Below, in pieces: positions 1,009 to 9,027 of a stretch of 25,822 nt of DNA. Position numbers and translations under genes: made by a program. The notes under the pieces are model-generated. The model was not told the DNA's origin. It ran no database searches and was given only the letters and a program-made list of their open reading frames with translations. The stretch is from a virus (lineage: Duplodnaviria; Heunggongvirae; Uroviricota; Caudoviricetes): the IMG/VR virus record IMGVR_UViG_2585427774_000009, positions 1 to 25,822 of that record; one strand, given 5' to 3'. How positions within the stretch are numbered: the stretch's first letter is position 1; each line of letters begins with the position of its first letter.

Positions 1009-1083
1009 GTCCTCTTAGTTAAATGGATATAACGAGCCCCTCCTAAGGGCTAATTGCAGGTTCGATTCCTGCAGGGGACACCA
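1009..1083 (+). tRNA. argW: tRNA-Arg (argW), 75 nt including the 3' CCA
   Basis: Sequence GTCCTCTTAGTTAAATGGATATAACGAGCCCCTCCTAAGGGCTAATTGCAGGTTCGATTCCTGCAGGGGACACCA read directly; acceptor stem GTCCTCT pairs with AGGGGAC; T-arm GGTTCGATTCC present; recognised as E. coli argW, a known prophage integration site. Confidence 0.9.
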
Positions 1084-1244
1084 TTTATCAGTTCGCTCCC
1101 ATCCGTACCAGTCCGCAAAATCCCCTGAATATCAAGCCTTCCGTAGATTAACAGTTCGTAATGGTTCGCGTCAGATCGTTGACAGCCGCACTCCATGACG
1201 GGTAAAAAGTGGATAAAATAATTTTACCCACCGGATTTTTACCC

Positions 1245-2435
1245 ATGCTCACCGTTAAGCAGATTGAAGCAGCAAAGCCGAAAGAAAAACCATACCGCCT
1301 TCTCGATGGTAATGGCCTGTACCTTTATGTCCCTGTATCAGGGAAAAAGGTATGGCAGCTTCGCTACAAGATTGACGGTAAGGAAAAAATACTGACCGTA
1401 GGAAAATATCCGCTAATGACTTTGCAGGAGGCAAGGGATAAAGCATGGACCGCGAGGAAAGACATCTCGGTTGGCATCGATCCGGTAAAGGCGAAAAAGG
1501 CTTCGTCTAACAACAATTCCTTTAGTGCGATTTACAAGGAATGGTACGAGCACAAGAAGCAAGTCTGGTCAGTAGGCTATGCAACTGAACTTGCCAAAAT
1601 GTTTGATGACGACATTTTACCCATCATCGGCGGTCTTGAGATTCAGGATATTGAGCCGATGCAACTGCTGGAAGTAATCCGCAGATTTGAAAATCGCGGT
1701 GCAATGGAGCGAGCCAACAAAGCCCGCAGAAGATGCGGCGAGGTTTTCCGTTACGCTATTGTCACCGGCAGGGCTAAATATAACCCGGCACCTGACCTTG
1801 CTGACGCCATGAAGGGATACCGCAAGAAGAACTTCCCGTTTCTTCCTGCAGACCAGATCCCGGCATTCAACAAAGCACTGGCAACATTTTCAGGAAGCAT
1901 CGTATCGCTCATTGCGACCAAAGTTTTACGCTACACAGCCCTAAGAACGAAAGAGCTTCGCTCCATGCAATGGAAGAACGTCGATTTTGAAAACAGGATT
2001 ATCACTATCGACGCCAGTGTGATGAAGGGCCGCAAAATTCATGTGGTTCCTATGTCAGACCAGGTAGTTGAACTTCTCACTACGCTAAGCTCAATCACCA
2101 AACCAGTATCAGAGTTTGTTTTTGCCGGGCGCAACGATAAGAAGAAGCCAATCTGCGAGAACGCGGTATTACTTGTGATCAAACGAATCGGCTATGAGGG
2201 TCTGGAAAGCGGTCACGGATTCAGGCATGAATTCAGCACGATTATGAACGAGCACGAATGGCCTGCTGATGCTATTGAAGTGCAACTGGCACATGCCAAC
2301 GGCGGATCTGTACGTGGAATTTACAACCATGCTCAGTATCTCGATAAGCGCAGAGAAATGATGCAGTGGTGGGCGGACTGGCTTGATGAAAAGGTGGGGG
2401 AATGCCACCCATCACACCACCCTGTCATCCTGTAG
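1245..2435 (+). CDS. intS: Tyrosine recombinase, IntS/P4-family prophage integrase
   Basis: ORF track gives 1209..2435 from a GTG; the ATG at 1245 yields MLTVKQIEAAKPKEKPYRLLDGNGLYLYVP, matching the E. coli CPS-53 IntS N-terminus as I recall it; C-terminal region contains the R...H..R...Y-type catalytic segment (GHGFRHEFST...RGIYNHAQY); sits 160 bp downstream of argW. Confidence 0.88.
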   Translation: MLTVKQIEAAKPKEKPYRLLDGNGLYLYVPVSGKKVWQLRYKIDGKEKILTVGKYPLMTLQEARDKAWTARKDISVGIDPVKAKKASSNNNSFSAIYKEWYEHKKQVWSVGYATELAKMFDDDILPIIGGLEIQDIEPMQLLEVIRRFENRGAMERANKARRRCGEVFRYAIVTGRAKYNPAPDLADAMKGYRKKNFPFLPADQIPAFNKALATFSGSIVSLIATKVLRYTALRTKELRSMQWKNVDFENRIITIDASVMKGRKIHVVPMSDQVVELLTTLSSITKPVSEFVFAGRNDKKKPICENAVLLVIKRIGYEGLESGHGFRHEFSTIMNEHEWPADAIEVQLAHANGGSVRGIYNHAQYLDKRREMMQWWADWLDEKVGECHPSHHPVIL

Positions 2436-2729
2436 CGCGCTGTTGATGAAGAACGTCACGCGCCCCAGCACCTCAACTTCCTCCGCCTCCTCCCCTTCGA
2501 TCGCTTCACCATCACCAGTGATTAATGCCCTACCCATTACCCTGGCAAACTGCGTTCTGCCGCCAGATAAAATCAGCAGAACCTGATTCTGTACCAGCCT
2601 GGTGCACGGCTCGATAACGGCAAAGCCGGATGAGGTTTCCAGGATGCGAGTGTCGACGCCAACACCGCAGATTCGCTCCGGAGTTAACCGCTGCTCTACA
2701 TAGTCGCCCGCCGGTGAAGGAAAGCCCAT
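2412..2729 (-). CDS. UmuD'-like (LexA/S24-fold) protein lacking the GDSM protease core; possibly degenerate
   Basis: Starts MGFPSPAGDYVEQRL, i.e. at the position equivalent to the post-cleavage N-terminus of UmuD' (GFPSPA.DYVEQR); the segment where UmuD carries the catalytic G-D-S-M serine is replaced by unrelated sequence (TPERICGVGVDTRILETSSG); the C-terminal part loosely resembles the UmuD dimerisation region. Start codon overlaps the stop of the upstream ORF (TGATG). Confidence 0.5.
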   Translation of the reverse strand: MGFPSPAGDYVEQRLTPERICGVGVDTRILETSSGFAVIEPCTRLVQNQVLLILSGGRTQFARVMGRALITGDGEAIEGEEAEEVEVLGRVTFFINSALQDDRVV

Positions 2730-2968
2730 CAGTGCACCCTCCCCATGTTGCGGAGGATCCAGTAGCGATTATCGCTATGGTCTGTCGTCTTATCTGCGAA
2801 GTCCGGATGATAGTACTTTATCCACTCGTTGGCGTCGGCCTGGCTGAAATGCCAGTGAACCTTTGCCAGCTCCCGAACGAAGTCAGAAGACCTCAGCCAC
2901 TGGTAACCTTTGGGATTAAGCTGAATAGCAGCGTGGAAAGCCGAGTTAATGTCTGATTGGCGGGGCAT
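2729..2968 (-). CDS. Hypothetical 79-aa protein, first gene of a LexA-box-controlled operon (position analogous to impC in impCAB-type operons)
   Basis: ORF with a GAGAGG Shine-Dalgarno 5-6 nt upstream of the ATG at 2968; LexA box 21 bp further upstream; translationally coupled to the UmuD'-like ORF. No homolog recognised from memory. Confidence 0.5.
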   Translation of the reverse strand: MPRQSDINSAFHAAIQLNPKGYQWLRSSDFVRELAKVHWHFSQADANEWIKYYHPDFADKTTDHSDNRYWILRNMGRVH

Positions 2969-2988: not shown

Positions 2989-3008
2989 TACTGTGTATCC
3001 ATACAGTA
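2989..3008 (-). promoter_or_regulatory. LexA (SOS) box TACTGTGTATCCATACAGTA
   Basis: Perfect CTGT-N8-ACAG match to the E. coli LexA operator consensus TACTGT(AT)4ACAGTA, read directly at 2989-3008, just upstream of the minus-strand operon starting at 2968. Confidence 0.65.
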
Positions 3009-3270
3009 GTTTTAAAGTGAGTGCAGATCAATGCGGCGACGCCTATCAATAGCGTCCACAGTTATAGAGGAACGGCGAAAGAATAAACAGTAGGGCTGTA
3101 TTGATGAAGAACCCAGGGATCTTTAACGCTCATACTGATCATTTGTCAGGATGTGATTATCAATAAAGCCAGGATAGGATTAATCTCACACACTTAGAGA
3201 TGACCCGACAATAATCGAAACGACAAGAAAAATGTGGTCTCGGTTACAGGATTATCACCTTGGTAAAGGG

Positions 3271-3582
3271 ATGACTACCATGACAAAATATGAAGGAATA
3301 TCGGCCAGAGTTAAACAAGTTACAGTTAATGATTTTGGTAGATATTTCAATAGCATTGAAAATTACAAGAATGGCATTTTTTGCTATATATGCGGTGGTA
3401 ATGACTGGGATTTGCACAGAAGTCCTGATGATAAAGAAAGGCCCGTGATTATCACCTTTCCCATCCCCGATAAAGATGGAATGGGAGTATGGGCCTTTTA
3501 TGTGATGTGCAAAAATTGCGGCGGCATGCATTTTATCAATGCTAATAAAGTTGCTAATTGGTTGGATAACAAAGAAAAATGA
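3271..3582 (+). CDS. Hypothetical small protein with two C-x2-C motifs (putative zinc ribbon)
   Basis: ORF track gives 3232..3582; the more likely start is the ATG at 3271 or 3280 (AAAGGGA Shine-Dalgarno at 3264-3271). Contains CYICGG and CKNCGG about 38 residues apart. Visibly AT-rich coding sequence. Stop overlaps the next start (ATGA at 3579-3582). Confidence 0.55.
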   Translation: MTTMTKYEGISARVKQVTVNDFGRYFNSIENYKNGIFCYICGGNDWDLHRSPDDKERPVIITFPIPDKDGMGVWAFYVMCKNCGGMHFINANKVANWLDNKEK

Positions 3583-4073
3583 TTAACCCTTGCTATGATG
3601 AGAGCATCTTCAATGTTGAAGTAAGGGGTAAATCTAAGCTAAATAGCCACGCCGGTGGTATGATTGAAAATCATAACGGCGACACTATGTTAGTTGCTGA
3701 AACAATCACTATTGATTTTGAGGAGGAAATCGTGACTTCGCAAGAAAATCCGCATCTGAAAATTCCTCTTACTTTCAAATCGGCTATGTGGATGGGTATT
3801 GGTTTCGTTGCTGTTGCGCTAGGTGGAGCTTGGGCCATGTACACCCACTTAGACAACAAACTTGAAACCTATAGATCTGGTACTGAAGCCCGAATTGAGG
3901 CCGCAAGAGCAAGCCTTGATGGCAAGATAGATTCTCTCGGATCAGAAACACGCGCTCATTTTGAAGCGGCTAGAGTGGAATCTAAAGCAGATAATGCCAC
4001 CATAACAACTCAACTACAGACCATCTCAAATAGCCTATCCGAACTAAACGGAAAAGTTTCAAAAGACAAATAA
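3579..4073 (+). CDS. Hypothetical membrane-anchored protein with one predicted TM helix and a helical C-terminal domain
   Basis: 164-aa ORF; central hydrophobic segment MWMGIGFVAVALGGAWAMY; C-terminal Ala/Arg/Glu-rich repeated helical segments (TEARIEAARASLDGKIDSLGSETRAHFEAARVESKAD); translationally coupled to the upstream ORF; followed by a terminator hairpin. Confidence 0.6.
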   Translation: MINPCYDESIFNVEVRGKSKLNSHAGGMIENHNGDTMLVAETITIDFEEEIVTSQENPHLKIPLTFKSAMWMGIGFVAVALGGAWAMYTHLDNKLETYRSGTEARIEAARASLDGKIDSLGSETRAHFEAARVESKADNATITTQLQTISNSLSELNGKVSKDK

Positions 4074-4104
4074 CCCGGCCACCGTGCCGGGTTATTGTTC
4101 ATTT
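4073..4104 (+). terminator. Rho-independent terminator after the two-gene cassette
   Basis: Stem ACCCGGC (4073-4079) / GCCGGGT (4086-4092) with a 6-nt loop, followed by TATTGTTCATTT; read directly. Confidence 0.55.
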
Positions 4105-4223: not shown

Positions 4224-6431
4224 TTATTTTGATTCGAGATCCTCAACACGCGCTACCAAATTTTCATACTGCTCTTTCATTCGCTCATAGTTACGGCGCT
4301 GCAGCGCAGCTTCCAGAGCCAGGGCCTCCTCATAACGAATGCCATAGCGGGATCCGGCTGGGGTTTCCAGAACCTGGCTGTAAGTTGGCTCTGCAGGTTC
4401 GGTATATTCCTCAATTACCTCAGTCGGCACCTGCTCGGTATACTCCTCCTCGACATCTTCAAGCTCTGCCTCATAAACAAAAAGCTGTTTGCCTGCCTCG
4501 TCAAGACGCGGAGAACCATCCTCGTTAAAGACAAATACCTGGATAAGCTTAGGTGTCTGATACTCTTCCTGAACTACCCTCTTGATGCGTTCTCCATCTT
4601 CCGCTTCTTCATCCACAAGAATTTCGCGCGTGGCTGTCATCATCACAGGTCGTTTTACTGTACGGGTTTTTGTCACTTCCATCATGCGGCTGACAGTGCG
4701 GGTTTTTGTTACTCGCTCCCCCTCATTGGTCCGCACTGAAATATATTGGTCTTCCCATTCGTCGTAACAGAGGAGCCCGAGACCGAAGCCATCAATGCCA
4801 TGCGATGCAAACACCTCCTCCACGCGCTGCGCAATAAGGCCGAAGTGCCAGCGCGCACCGTCTTCGCCTTTTTGCGCAACCGCATCATCAAACTTAAACC
4901 GCGTGCGCCAGCTGACTTCCTCCCAGGCATCGAGGACCACATCAGGGATCGCTTCCTTAATTGGCTTGTGATTGTCATCGGAGGTGTTAATCGCACCAGT
5001 ACCAAAATAGGCAGTACGTCCTCGATATGAGGCTGAGCCATAATCGAACTGGTTATCGGCGCTCGGGCGCTGGGTGCAGTTATAGGTGACAATCCCGGCT
5101 TTTATCTCATAGTTACCTTGCCCATCTGTTGCACTACCACCGCTAACCACTACGCGAGCGTCAAAAGCAGAGCCAGCCCCACTGGACCGGTATATTGTTT
5201 GCACCGTGCTTGCAATAGTTGGAGACCCTACTGACGTAAACGCCCCTGAGTCTTCTAATTGCAAAGATTTGGTGCTGAGCTTAACCAGGTTGTGGAAAAT
5301 GATGTGGTTCACTTCAACCAACGAACCGAGGGAAAGGACGCGGTCTATTTTTGGGCAGTCGACGGAAAGTACACGGCTGTCTTCACCAAATACTGCCCCG
5401 CCATTCTGCGGGCCAAAGGCAATACCGGTTCGCCAGGTGCAGGCGCTACCCATGTTACCGACGCTAATTGCAGCATCAATTACGTCGCCGCGTTTTGCCT
5501 TGGTGCCGCCGATTTGCAGGCCGGTTCTGATGTTTGAGCTGGCACCCTCCGGAATGCCGACGTTGAATTCAGCCCCCGTGACATTGAGCGTATACATAGC
5601 CCCTGGGGTAAGCGTTCCGTAGAAATTACCACCAAAATAAGCCCCCTTAGCGCCAGCAAGCGATACTCCACCGTCTCCAGTTGAGGAGGTCGCAAAGCCG
5701 GTGACGCCTACATAGTTTCTGTCAGTATTTGTTGCATCAGTCTGACCAAGCTGCTCAAGGATGAATTCAGCAGCGTGGCGGCCGCCTTTACATCCCGCCC
5801 CCCCGAATTTGTGATTCAAGAGGAATCCGTCAACCTTTGTTCCGGGAACCATGTCATCAACAGCATTGAAACGGTCATCGTCAATCCTGATATAATTGAA
5901 CTTGGCCGTGTTGACAGTGAGCCCGCTCCCGGTAATCGGCTCCGCAAGATGAACCCCGATCCCTCGGGTAATATCATCTCCGAATTTCTCTCCTGGCCGC
6001 CCCTGCAGAATTGAAAACTTATCCAGTCCTCGGCTCATTACCCCAGGACCTACTAATGCAGCGCCGCCCAGCGCAGCTAATTCAGCCCTTAACTGGTCTG
6101 GAGCATATTTCAGAACATCAGCAAAATAGAATTGTTGGGTGCCGTATGAATCGCGAATCTCCATGCTGTAATTTTGCACGGTGACGAATTTAACAATCTG
6201 ACCGTTATAAACGGGGAATCCGCCAGCATTTATTCGCAATGGCTGAGGTACTGGAACATGGGTCCCATCTTCATTCTCAATATAAACCTGAATTTGGTTA
6301 GCAGGATTCGTAGGATCTGTATCCACTAGCCCAATAAAGATTTCTCCATTGGCAACAGCCTTAAATGCACGAGCCATAGTAAATGGCTGGCTAGGCATGG
6401 CGATAAGAACATTCGCGGTAATATCTGACAT
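4224..6431 (-). CDS. Tailspike protein: P22-like head-binding N-domain, glycine-rich receptor-binding/depolymerase domain, C-terminal S74-type intramolecular chaperone domain
   Basis: 735-aa ORF; N-terminal about 110 aa (MSDITANV...FKAVANG...[19 protein letters not shown]...LKY.PDQ) matches the P22 gp9 head-binding domain from memory; central Gly/Thr-rich region typical of beta-helix spikes; C-terminal part has a Ser-(x4)-Lys motif (TSDDNHK) and WHFGLIAQ resembling endosialidase-type autoproteolytic chaperone domains; last gene of the late operon as in P22. Confidence 0.85.
4657..4712 (-). repeat. Imperfect 36-bp tandem duplication inside the tailspike C-terminal domain
   Basis: ACTGTACGGGTTTTTGTCAC (4657-4676) and ACAGTGCGGGTTTTTGTTAC (4693-4712) on the plus strand, encoding the duplicated peptide VTKTRTV in [22 protein letters not shown]. 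Confidence 0.5.
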
Positions 6432-6531: not shown

Positions 6532-7434
6532 TCAGTAGTTATGTACTGAAGGAGGTAATTCTTTATTCTTAAGTCTCATCCATGCGGAAAGATTCGTTGG
6601 TCCGTCTGGCTCATTGATATCAACATCTCGTGAGTGATTGATTAAAACGTCTCTCGCTATATCGATAATACGGGAGAACTCATAACCGCAGTCATGACAT
6701 CTGCCGGAATAGTTCGATTGAATTTGTTTCAGCGCCGGATACAGTTCGCGGAATAATGCCTGTGAGCGGTTGGCATAATCCCATAACCATACAAGACTGT
6801 TTGCTTCTTTTGCAGAAAGCTCGTTGGTTTTCTTATCTTGTTTGCCGATAAACTCGCCTTCAAGCACTACCCTGTGGATGTACTCTACTGCTTGCGGTAT
6901 CTGAGATGCATCAAGCTCTTCAATACTTTCCACGTTGAAACGCTGATGAATCATTGCATAAGCTTCTGGGTACATTAGATGCTTTTTGCTGACTAGCATA
7001 TTTACAGCATCACGAAGCGGAGTCCTGTCATCAACAGATGTTTTCTTACGTGCATTTTCTGCCTTTCCCTTCGTCCAGTAGTCATGCAGCACGCTAAAGC
7101 ATTCCTCCTGGTACTGAATCAGTTTATCACGGATGTCAGCACGAACTTTCTCAGGGTTGATGCTGAACAGCCATCCATTTAACTTCTTCAAAGGAAGGCA
7201 GAGTAGCTTACGAAGCTTCCCATCAGCGGCAACCATGTTCATATGAACACAGTTGAATTTGCTAATCTGCTTCATGAGTTTTGTTTGCTGCGTTGACCAG
7301 CTCATTCCAAGGTTTTCAACGATTGGCTTCATCGCAACATATGCAACTCCGGCAGCCATGGCGGTGATAATTTGCTGACCGTTGAATGGTACGTAAGAGG
7401 TGTTCACTGCTTCTAAAATTGCTATACTATTCAT
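6532..7434 (-). CDS. ant: Antirepressor Ant (P22 immI)
   Basis: ORF track gives a 322-aa ORF; the internal start [21 protein letters not shown] matches the P22 Ant N-terminus from memory and gives 300 aa, with a GGAGA Shine-Dalgarno upstream; position downstream of arc. Confidence 0.85.
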
Positions 7435-7502: not shown

Positions 7503-7664
7503 TTACGCGCCAATGCGCCCTTCCTTCTTAAAGCTTTCCATTACTCTCTGATAAATCTCAGAGTTAACAGACCGACCATTCTCTTCCGCCACCTTGCGGA
7601 CCAAATCCAATACTTCTTTAGGCCACCGCAAATTGAACTGCGGCATCTTGCTCATTCCTTTCAT
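7503..7664 (-). CDS. arc: Arc repressor (ribbon-helix-helix)
   Basis: Internal start of the 74-aa track ORF gives [53 protein letters not shown] (53 aa), which matches P22 Arc as I recall it (one conservative difference possible). Confidence 0.9.
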
Positions 7665-7678
7665 ATTCACCTCACAAT

Positions 7679-7699
7679 ATAGGTCCACCGTGGACCTAT
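7679..7699. promoter_or_regulatory. Mnt operator (Omnt), perfect 21-bp palindrome ATAGGTCCACCGTGGACCTAT
   Basis: Read directly; the core AGGTCCAC(C/G)GTGGACCT equals the published P22 mnt operator; lies between arc (start 7664) and mnt (start 7755), where Pant is expected. Confidence 0.75.
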
Positions 7700-7706
7700 T
7701 GAGAAT

Positions 7707-7727
7707 ATAGTAGAGTGCTTCTATCAT
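7707..7727. promoter_or_regulatory. Arc operator (Oarc)
   Basis: Plus strand reads ATAGTAGAGTGCTTCTATCAT, the reverse complement of the P22 arc operator ATGATAGAAGCACTCTACTAT as I recall it; located in the arc-mnt divergent promoter region. Confidence 0.7.
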
Positions 7728-7754
7728 GTCAATATACTAACTTGGAGTGATGGC

Positions 7755-8006
7755 ATGGCTAGAGATGATCCGCACTTTAACTTCCGTATGCCTATGGAAG
7801 TAAGGGAGAAATTAAAATTCAGGGCGGAGGCGAATGGGAGATCAATGAACTCCGAGTTGTTACAAATCGTCCAAGATGCTCTATCAAAACCATCGCCTGT
7901 GACTGGATATCGCGACGATGCAGAACGACTCGCTGATGAGCAGTCAGAGCTTGTTAAGAAGATGGTGTTTGATACGCTGAAGGATTTGTACAAAAAACCC
8001 ACCTGA
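7755..8006 (+). CDS. mnt: Mnt repressor (ribbon-helix-helix, maintenance of lysogeny)
   Basis: 83-aa ORF MARDDPHFNFRMPMEVREKLKFRAEANGRSMNSELLQIVQDALSKPSPVTGYRDDAERLADEQSELVKKMVFDTLKDLYKKPT, near-identical to P22 Mnt from memory; divergent from arc-ant. Confidence 0.9.
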   Translation: MARDDPHFNFRMPMEVREKLKFRAEANGRSMNSELLQIVQDALSKPSPVTGYRDDAERLADEQSELVKKMVFDTLKDLYKKPT

Positions 8007-8015
8007 CGGTGGGTT
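7992..8015. terminator. Hairpin terminator shared by convergent mnt (+) and the 355-aa gene (-)
   Basis: AAAAAA-CCCACC-TGAC-GGTGGG-TT; the minus-strand transcript would end in a U-run (plus-strand A-run 7992-7997); overlaps the mnt stop codon. Confidence 0.55.
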
Positions 8016-8019
8016 ACTG

Positions 8020-9027
8020 TTACTTGTCTGAATCATCCAGTTCGTCTGTTTTCACATCCTCAAACCTTGGATGCAGGCGATTCATTTTTGCAATAAAATC
8101 TGAATAGTCGTTAGATAGCTTCATAATCGTAACGGTTGATGACAGATGCTCTCTTAATTTTTGATATCCAATATTTGGCGTCAGCCCCTGAAACAACTTT
8201 GTACCTTTTGAGGCCTTTACGTTCTGCTTTTTAAGCTCCTCAAGGATGTTTGGTGCCAATCTCTTGTAGACGATATCATTTGTCAAAACGCCAAAATACT
8301 GAGGCCGGAAGCGGGGATTTTCCGGCGGGTATTCTAAGCCCCTTAACCTGAAAAGCTCTTCATAATAATCAGCAGGAAATGTTGTAATATAAGGTTGAAT
8401 TTCCTTTGCGACAAAGGCCTCGAGTATTTTGGCGAGTGCATCTTTTTCTCTATCTCGCTGGTAACCCGTCGCTTCATCAACAAGCGCTATTATTCCGACT
8501 TTAGCTAATGAGCGCACCAGAATTTCAGCTTTCTTGGCTGTCTCTAACTGGTTTGGCCTGGTGATAGCGCCTGCCTCTCTTGCCTTTAAATAAACATCGC
8601 AGACAAGAGGTATTATGGATGCGTCATAACCTTCCTGGACGGAGCCAGTAATCGTCTTGTATTTGACCTTATTGATCACATCCATAACATCTTGATTTAT
8701 ATATTTTTTAAGGTTTGCAGCATCCATAAAAGCGGGCATATTGATCACCCCCTCTTCTTGAGGTGCTCTACCCCCTCTTTGTGGTCGGCCAAATGCTTTA
8801 AAAACAGAAGCTTGTGATATGATACGCCGTCCATTTTCGAGAACCGCGACATCTAATTCCGCATCACCGATCTTTAACTTTCCCTCATTCGCAGATACGG
8901 GCAATAAAGCTTTTTCTTTTTTTGCGGCAACAGCCTTTCTTGAGGATTCTTTTCTTTGCTCTGCTGTCATTTTTGCCGCGCGTGCCTTACCGCCTTTGGC
9001 CTTCCCACTAACATCATCATTTTTCAT
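8020..9027 (-). CDS. Hypothetical protein with basic Lys/Ala-rich N-terminus and a C-terminal region resembling the P63C-type phage domain
   Basis: ORF track gives 8020..9087 (355 aa); the likely start is the ATG at 9027 or 9033 (MKNDDVSGKAKGGKARAAK...). The IALVDEATGYQRDREKDALAKILEAF segment resembles my recollection of P63C-domain proteins; unverified. Occupies the position where P22 carries sieA-region genes, between gp16 and mnt. Confidence 0.6.
   Translation of the reverse strand: MKNDDVSGKAKGGKARAAKMTAEQRKESSRKAVAAKKEKALLPVSANEGKLKIGDAELDVAVLENGRRIISQASVFKAFGRPQRGGRAPQEEGVINMPAFMDAANLKKYINQDVMDVINKVKYKTITGSVQEGYDASIIPLVCDVYLKAREAGAITRPNQLETAKKAEILVRSLAKVGIIALVDEATGYQRDREKDALAKILEAFVAKEIQPYITTFPADYYEELFRLRGLEYPPENPRFRPQYFGVLTNDIVYKRLAPNILEELKKQNVKASKGTKLFQGLTPNIGYQKLREHLSSTVTIMKLSNDYSDFIAKMNRLHPRFEDVKTDELDDSDK

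Follow-up and report, generated by a model that had tools for sequence, protein, structure and literature searches.

What does an AT-rich pair of overlapping genes do between the integrase gene and the tailspike gene of a P22-like Escherichia coli prophage? The pair, here called gene 1 and gene 2 and together the cassette, lies in IMG/VR virus record IMGVR_UViG_2585427774_000009, and "the window" denotes the whole stretch that was analysed, positions 1 to 25,822 of that record. A preliminary description, made from the nucleotide sequence alone, had singled out the cassette as a possible undescribed defence system. The comparisons presented here show that the two genes form a moron that is genuine, rare and uncharacterised and whose architecture is modular. 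Judging from gene order and protein features, it is reasonable to regard it as a candidate for a new Rex-like exclusion module. The interpretation that we put forward, tentatively, is that the cassette is a lysogen-expressed, membrane-tethered two-protein phage-exclusion moron with Rex-like logic, which would be unrelated in sequence to RexA and RexB.

The two proteins of the cassette

Both plus-strand open reading frames (ORFs) reported in the preliminary description between the end of the integrase gene and the tailspike gene are present, at 3232-3582 and 3579-4073, and so is the ATGA in which the stop codon of the first overlaps the start codon of the second. This junction is common to all enterobacterial pairs that were tabulated (15 of 15). 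The G+C (GC) content of the cassette is 0.37-0.43 compared with 0.50-0.56 in the integrase and tailspike flanks, in agreement with the lower GC noticed earlier. Both genes are really coding, with homologues that reach down to 30-50% identity and have conserved motifs.

The ORF given for gene 1, 116 amino acids (aa) from 3232, exists as described, but its most likely start is the ATG at 3280 (Met17 of the ORF) because homologues of 100-107 aa align from there, because NCBI annotations call a protein of 100 aa and because the sequence AAGGG is found 9 nt upstream. The longer ORF is probably not used. Counted from Met 3280, the two CxxC motifs are C35/C38 and C77/C80, and they are invariant in 34 family members. 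A further invariant segment is P61-x-P63 ... G67-x-G69-x-W71-x-F73. The AlphaFold2 (AF2) model of gene 1 is confident, with a predicted local distance difference test score (pLDDT) of 87.7 and a predicted template modelling score (pTM) of 0.77, and consists of two short N-terminal helices, a small sheet with both zinc knuckles and a C-terminal helix. The protein is not basic, the pI ranging from 4.8 to 8.4 over the family. The one family to which gene 1 belongs is phrog_4293 (E = 1.2e-10, with profile positions 8-117 of 124 aligned to residues 24-115 of the 116 in the ORF), which names the protein without explaining it because this family has no assigned function. When the model is compared with BFVD, the top match is an unnamed protein of 87 aa (E = 0.02).

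For gene 2 the start at 3579 is upheld by the conservation of its N-terminal motif, MIxxCFDD, and annotations that start the gene at Met28 (137 aa) are too short. Its homologues form 24 clusters, all from Enterobacterales. The single transmembrane (TM) helix and the repetitive helical C-terminus noticed earlier are both borne out: there is one hydrophobic segment at about aa 68-90, and the C-terminal stalk has a true 11-residue periodicity, with a self-similarity of 0.17 at an offset of 11 and 0.19 at an offset of 22 over a background of about 0.05. Homologues also differ from each other by insertions or deletions of 11 residues. In the AF2 model a disordered N-terminus with a small hairpin is followed by a single long helix from residue 64 to 163, in which the stalk has a pLDDT of about 80-94. 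The hairpin is found at the conserved IENxDGxxMxVAE motif and the N-terminal module is otherwise predicted to be disordered; this module is proposed to be a cytoplasmic docking region for gene 1. The invariant columns of the alignment run from H59 to K67 and from A84 to L95. Because a lysine or arginine lies directly N-terminal of the TM helix in all gene 2 classes, we infer a topology with the N-terminus inside and the C-terminus outside (N-in/C-out), which would place the stalk in the periplasm.

Two other ideas were rejected. A peptidoglycan-linked rod of the Lpp type was discarded because the C-terminal lysine is not conserved as the last residue. The idea that the cassette mimics needle or ejection proteins of the phage itself as a decoy was discarded because the cassette proteins have no similarity to other ORFs in the window.

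Comparison of the relatives shows how gene 2 is put together, in that three unrelated TM/stalk classes share one N-terminal type. In strain EC102, where the pair occupies the same slot as in the window, gene 1 belongs to the same 90%-identity cluster and the N-terminus of gene 2 is similar, and the TM helix and stalk are of another class. Among 15 pairs, the identity of gene 1 is correlated with that of residues 1-50 of gene 2 (r = 0.66, Mantel p = 2e-4), compared with r = 0.18 for the rest of gene 2, and the N-terminal and remaining halves of gene 2 are uncorrelated (r = 0.04). The TM helix and stalk are the best conserved parts in the window's class (44-92% identity), whereas gene 1 (24-90%) and the N-terminal module (18-62%) diverge fast. 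A unit of gene 1 and a putative docking peptide that co-evolve, attached to an exchangeable membrane module, would account for this pattern.

The cassette had also been described as a transcription unit of its own. The part of this claim that concerns the end of the unit stands: a strong, G+C-rich, terminator-like hairpin extends over the stop codon of gene 2. Its stem is 11 bp long, its free energy (dG) is -19.5 kcal/mol and z = -4.4, and no shuffled sequence folded as well. The T-run of the hairpin is weak on the plus strand. A search of the region for noncoding RNAs gave only a sub-threshold match to isrJ over this terminator. Upstream of gene 1, a block with three AGGAT repeats is kept among the window, EC102 and one IMG/VR prophage, and the ~95 nt between the block and gene 1 are unrelated. 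The block could be a promoter or operator of the slot, or a recombination joint for the exchange of cargo.

Many toxin-antitoxin modules pair a small upstream protein with a translationally coupled small membrane protein, and prophage morons such as bor and lom are reported to change the physiology of the host, for example its stress or serum resistance. The pair has this layout, the many small residues in its TM helix would allow self-association, and it is AT-rich cargo with its own terminator. It could thus be a moron for addiction or host fitness that has no part in acting against phages, either as a membrane toxin with its antitoxin that stabilise the prophage or as an envelope-modifying factor for stress or serum resistance. 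However, this is improbable. There is no match to a toxin-antitoxin family in Pfam, NCBIfam or PADLOC, a highly conserved ectodomain of 75 residues would be superfluous for a simple membrane toxin, and all contexts of the family are those of temperate phages, most of them in the immunity operon.

Relatives of the pair and its possible role

The pair is a conserved, mobile two-gene unit that moves between phage types. It was found in about 25 loci in Escherichia, Citrobacter, Serratia, Yersinia, Kosakonia, Pantoea and Cronobacter, where the partner is a single-pass membrane protein whose gene overlaps that of the gene 1 homologue. An exhaustive profile search found gene 1 homologues in 171 clusters at 50% identity, nearly all of them standalone proteins of about 100 aa, and in every locus examined the gene 1 homologue is directly followed by its partner. 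The main context is a position 13-112 bp downstream of a cI-type repressor (S24/helix-turn-helix), on the same strand and facing away from cro. This context is found in prophages of Serratia, Yersinia, Kosakonia and Cronobacter as well as in metagenomic and IMG/VR prophages, and the closest non-identical relative (81% and 72% identity) belongs to it. The second context, to which the window belongs, is the interval between the prophage end and the tailspike gene of argW-integrated P22-like prophages, and also a place beside the tail fibre gene of lambda-like siphoprophages at other sites. In a third context, in Pantoea, the pair lies on the opposite strand inside a siphophage tail cluster.

Distant gene 1 homologues (29-35% identity) were found in only four GenBank phage isolates, and these members of phrog_4293 likewise follow directly after cI in all four. 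In E. coli phage PHB10 the homologue is followed by a protein with two TM helices (2-TM) and then by another membrane protein. The partner in Pseudomonas phage Aurca01 is a single-TM protein of 170 aa, and the partner in Pseudomonas phage vB_PaeS-D14O is a coiled-coil-plus-TM protein with a weak profile similarity to gene 2 around the TM helix (E = 2.8e-4). Two soluble proteins follow the homologue in Yersinia phage vB_YenM_30.14. There is also a natural fusion (P0178, 214 aa) of a gene-1-like domain, a coiled coil and a C-terminal TM helix.

The soluble proteins that replace the membrane protein in vB_YenM_30.14 are of 103 and 124 aa and overlap (Table 1). The protein of 124 aa matches phrog_5954 (E = 2e-12), which is a functionally unannotated family. 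Possibly the zinc-ribbon family works here with another set of effectors.

The place right after cI, which dominates among the relatives, might suggest a role in the phage's own regulation. In this case the pair would tune the lysis-lysogeny switch or induction, for example as a membrane-tethered factor that sequesters or releases the zinc-ribbon protein on envelope or SOS signals, or much as RexA modulates CI/Cro. Anti-sigma/sigma pairs consist of a membrane protein with a cytoplasmic docking region and a small soluble partner, which a single-pass gene 2 product with an N-terminal docking region and the small gene 1 protein would resemble. In the window, the cassette is also divergent from an operon with a LexA box. 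RexA and RexB, at the corresponding place in phage lambda, influence the bistable lysis-lysogeny switch (PMC11077077). However, the cassette is portable without cI, as seen in the window and in siphophage tail clusters of Pantoea, and this is unexpected for a regulator that is matched to an immunity region. Moreover, the gene 1 model has no helix-turn-helix or sigma-like fold, and most related prophages do without the cassette. An internal regulator is the least probable of the explanations considered here.

Several copies of the pair adjoin a tailspike or tail-fibre gene, a place where morons for receptor modification or exclusion are found, and in strain 1008S19 an acyltransferase holds the same slot as the cassette of the window. 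Together with the predicted bitopic N-in/C-out architecture, the long and highly conserved ectodomain and a stalk that changes length in whole 11-residue steps, as a spacer-like rod might, this could indicate superinfection exclusion at the level of the envelope. Gene 2 would then be the active component, its stalk blocking the trans-envelope DNA-delivery channel of the incoming phage or a host entry factor, as has been reported for HK97 gp15, T4 Imm and P22 SieA, and gene 1 would only be a chaperone, stabiliser or regulator on the cytoplasmic side. This explanation is unlikely, if less so than an addiction moron. The strictly conserved and more widely distributed component is the zinc-ribbon partner, whereas known superinfection exclusion (Sie) proteins are to our knowledge products of single genes. 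Partners without an ectodomain (the 2-TM protein of PHB10) or without a TM helix (the Yersinia phage) exist, and there is no similarity to an exclusion-annotated PHROG at E <= 1.

A superinfection-exclusion or abortive-infection role for the pair as a whole, as the preliminary description had proposed, fits because the pair occupies classic lysogen-expressed moron slots. The context, that of an unrecognised, coupled soluble-plus-membrane module in such slots, agrees with the proposal, but no homology to a known defence protein was found. In our Rex-like interpretation, the ATGA coupling would cause gene 1 to be made in stoichiometric amounts with gene 2. On the cytoplasmic side, the acidic and variable first ~55 residues of gene 2 would be the docking place of gene 1, and gene 2 would cross the inner membrane once, N-in, and extend a hendecad coiled-coil stalk of ~75 residues into the periplasm. 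The fast-evolving gene 1 and the docking segment would set the specificity and sense the invader, and the conserved TM helix and stalk would oligomerise and act at the membrane, a presumed division of the pair into sensor and effector. The most likely outcome would be abortive infection, in which the membrane of the infected cell loses its integrity or is de-energised, and interference with DNA entry would be the alternative. The abortive outcome is favoured over a pure injection block by a small margin because the cytoplasmic zinc-ribbon subunit is the universal component, because some gene 1 partners lack an ectodomain and because effector exchange is a known pattern of abortive-infection systems.

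Several observations weigh against an exclusion role. No family in PADLOC-DB v2.0.0 matches gene 1 or gene 2 at E <= 1, and gene 1 has no recognisable ligand- or nucleic acid-binding signature. A structure search with the gene 1 model, a check that the preliminary description had named, gave no match to a solved fold (Foldseek against the PDB, best E = 0.41). The AF2 model of the gene 2 monomer is a long helix only (pTM 0.28), and because of this the oligomerisation and pore formation of gene 2 are conjecture. The beginning of the supposed transcription unit did not stand as its end did: no plus-strand sigma-70 promoter was called upstream of the cassette and none is convincing by eye, so that expression in the slot of the window can only be presumed. 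The correlation between gene 1 and the N-terminus of gene 2 could reflect plain linkage of adjacent DNA and not contact between the proteins. The position next to cI does not prove defence, because the lambda rex genes also modulate the lysis-lysogeny switch. Finally, the family is rare, with a DNA-detectable relative in 1 of 5,426 complete E. coli genomes.

It is also possible, although slightly more doubtful than exclusion by the cassette itself, that the pair is the founding member of a family of anti-phage systems, new, modular and tethered to the membrane, that reside in the repressor operon of temperate phages of Gammaproteobacteria. Such systems would combine a fast-evolving zinc-ribbon sensor with a fold unseen before, a co-varying cytoplasmic docking peptide and interchangeable effectors (hendecad stalks, 2-TM proteins or soluble proteins), and would act on the inner membrane, or signal across it, during infection.

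If the pair excludes phages, it would be a small defence module (~0.8 kb) without sequence relationship to those already known, and would join the short list of modules at the rexAB position. The mechanism of RexAB is still debated after decades. The pair would then offer a simple two-protein model of a cytoplasmic sensor coupled to a membrane effector, with a layout of zinc ribbon, docking peptide, one TM helix and periplasmic rod in which natural domain swaps and one natural fusion are available. It could also explain narrow host-range differences among lysogens of E. coli, Serratia, Yersinia and Citrobacter, which bears on phage therapy and typing. If the pair does not have a role in defence, it would still be a conserved and unannotated component of many immunity operons, with a bearing on the control of lysis and lysogeny.

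The prophage end and its cargo slot

The window contains the left end of a P22-like prophage integrated in E. coli at tRNA-Arg(CCT) (argW), beside yfdC, and each of the 5,426 complete E. coli genomes matches its host flank. To the right of the tailspike gene are the genes for the P22 antirepressor, ejection proteins, coat, portal and terminase. The interval between integrase and tailspike consists of two units, a minus-strand gene pair and the plus-strand cassette. The coordinates of these features are given in Table 1.

Table 1. Positions of the features in the window and of comparable features in related loci.
Feature	Sequence	Position	Strand	Characteristics and basis
tRNA-Arg(CCT)	window	1009-1083
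IntS-type integrase	window	1209-2435
UmuD-like protein, 105 aa	window	2412-2729	minus	phrog_3469
79-aa protein	window	2729-2968	minus	phrog_3893, E = 4e-39; family functionally unannotated
LexA (SOS) box TACTGTGTATCCATACAGTA	window	2989-3008		perfect box
Candidate regulatory/promoter block	window	3134..3185	+	three AGGAT repeats; 95-146 nt before gene 1 start
Gene 1, 100-aa predicted cytoplasmic zinc-ribbon protein	window	3280..3582	+	C35-x2-C38, C77-x2-C80
ATGA overlap of gene 1 stop and gene 2 start	window	3579..3582	+	translational coupling; read from sequence
Gene 2, 164-aa predicted single-pass inner-membrane protein	window	3579..4073	+	ORF, homologue alignment, AF2 model
Gene 2 N-terminal module, aa 1-55	window	3579..3743	+	acidic, variable; motifs MIxxCFDD, IENxDGxxMxVAE
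Juxtamembrane motif PHLKxPLTFKSAMW and G/A-rich TM helix, aa 59-90	window	3753..3848	+	alignment, hydropathy
C-terminal helical stalk, ~75 residues	window	3849..4070	+	about 6.5 hendecad repeats; predicted periplasmic
Terminator-like hairpin	window	4069..4096	both	scan and folding
Tailspike	window	4224-6431	minus	P22 head-binding domain
Annotated acyltransferase in the slot	strain 1008S19 (L046)	7545-8288		adjoins tail-fibre gene
Extra gene	EC102 (L048)	8718-9017	minus	99-aa predicted membrane protein
Extra ORF	most close relatives (L001-L008)	about 8544-8771	minus	73-75 aa
DUF2767 gene	L009-L014	about 8528-8737
DUF2767 gene	L019	about 6839-7009
Two soluble proteins	vB_YenM_30.14 (L029)	4318-5000		103 and 124 aa

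Sister prophages in E. coli have the same integrase and the same two leftward genes as the window, and the content of the slot differs. There is nothing in the slot in strain 980-2, an annotated acyltransferase in strain 1008S19, two small hypothetical proteins in strain EC31 and a variant of the gene 1/gene 2 pair in strain EC102. The comparison of related argW prophages, which had been named as a check, thus displays a variable cargo space. The acyltransferase gene of 1008S19 shows that the slot carries serotype-conversion-type cargo in some strains. The interval that had been taken for the cassette's place is a real cargo slot, but it is a secondary landing site of the pair and not its typical one.

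The acyltransferase at this slot may be an O-antigen acetylase.

The cassette had no match in a megablast search of complete E. coli genomes, and the sole DNA-level relative found with blastn in the 5,426 genomes is the diverged copy in EC102. Searches of GenBank phages with the DNA of the cassette and, by tblastn, with gene 2 were both negative, and a scan of genome contigs with a gene 2 pattern gave nothing.

Other copies in this slot have a small minus-strand gene between the pair and the tailspike gene, which is absent from the window. The gap between gene 2 and the tailspike gene is about 170 bp shorter in the window than in the copies with this extra gene. In prophages of Serratia and Kosakonia a small DUF2767 gene on the opposite strand recurs directly downstream of the pair, and may be part of the phage backbone.

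The leftward two-gene unit ends P22-like and lambda-like prophages alike, with or without the cassette. The UmuD-like protein of the window has no match in Pfam, and its counterpart in some relatives is a protein of 129 aa with a full Peptidase_S24 match. The LexA box is the sole match in the window, where 0.02 are expected by chance, and it overlaps the -10 element of a good minus-strand promoter for the leftward pair (TTGATC, 17 nt, TACTGT). Both the box and the -35 block are retained in diverged copies. Because the box lies over this promoter, it looks as if the operon that diverges from the cassette can be induced by the SOS response.

Comparison with known systems

The preliminary description recognised neither protein, and this agrees with the database searches: neither is found in Pfam, NCBIfam, PADLOC or any annotated PHROG. 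Related partners in the family libraries gave chance-level coiled-coil or zinc-ribbon matches only, and profile searches of the PDB with both alignments gave nothing below E = 0.1. Neither protein fits a family of enzymes or of structural, lysis or regulatory proteins in Pfam, NCBIfam or the PHROGs, and literature searches found no description of the pair. The Lar zinc ribbon (PF14354) is likewise a small prophage zinc-ribbon protein, with a weak match over the second CxxC knuckle of gene 1. Assignment of gene 1 to this family (Lar_restr_allev) was rejected because the match covers only 23 residues and reaches 15.7 bits against a gathering cut-off of 28.6.

Cargo for O-antigen conversion (gtrABC, oac) was discarded as an explanation of the pair since no glycosyltransferase, flippase or acyltransferase domain was found with Pfam or NCBIfam. 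Pseudomonas phage Fc02 has a pair of overlapping genes for exclusion close to its repressor gene, which were also considered and are unrelated, Fc02 being a B3-like phage and the proteins different.

The topology predicted for gene 2, N-in/C-out with a single pass and a periplasmic coiled coil, resembles that of i-spanins of the Rz type. A scan of the PHROGs at E <= 1 gave functionally unannotated families and a weak spanin match only. The matches to Rz-like spanin PHROGs (gene 2, E = 0.03; related partners, E = 5e-4 to 2e-3) are non-significant and compositional. Unlike spanins, gene 2 has an extra, predicted cytoplasmic N-terminal module of about 60 aa and a location where genes are expressed in lysogeny, and the lysis cassettes sit elsewhere in the same prophages. 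A role as a spanin or in lysis was rejected because the neighbour is a predicted cytoplasmic zinc ribbon and not a lipoprotein o-spanin, and because the pair is found in the cI operon or in a moron slot.

HK97 gp15, P22 SieA and T4 Imm are small inner-membrane moron proteins that are expressed from prophages and act at the envelope. Gene 2 is similar to these in that it appears to be a small bitopic inner-membrane protein found in moron slots. The pair differs from them in its obligatory, predicted cytoplasmic zinc-ribbon partner and its swappable TM helix and stalk, and in the lack of similarity to exclusion PHROGs already described.

The closest likeness in layout is to rexAB of phage lambda, where the two genes lie downstream of cI and are transcribed with cI from PRM in lysogens (PMC11077077). 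RexA is soluble, RexB is an inner-membrane protein and the two interact (PMC11077077). Like rexAB, the cassette consists of two adjacent genes with one soluble and one predicted inner-membrane product and has the low GC of a moron, and most relatives of the pair are found directly after cI on the same strand, as is rexAB. In contrast, the pair of the window is not next to cI but between the prophage end and the tailspike gene. Neither protein matches the Rex families at E <= 1 in Pfam or PADLOC, both of which presumably contain Rex models. RexA is a DNA-binding dimer of 31 kDa with two domains and RexB has four TM helices (PMC11077077), whereas gene 1 is a zinc ribbon of 100 aa and gene 2 has one TM helix and a predicted periplasmic hendecad stalk. 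The pair thus stands apart from RexAB in every structural feature compared, and it is Rex-like in its layout and, for most of its relatives, in its location.

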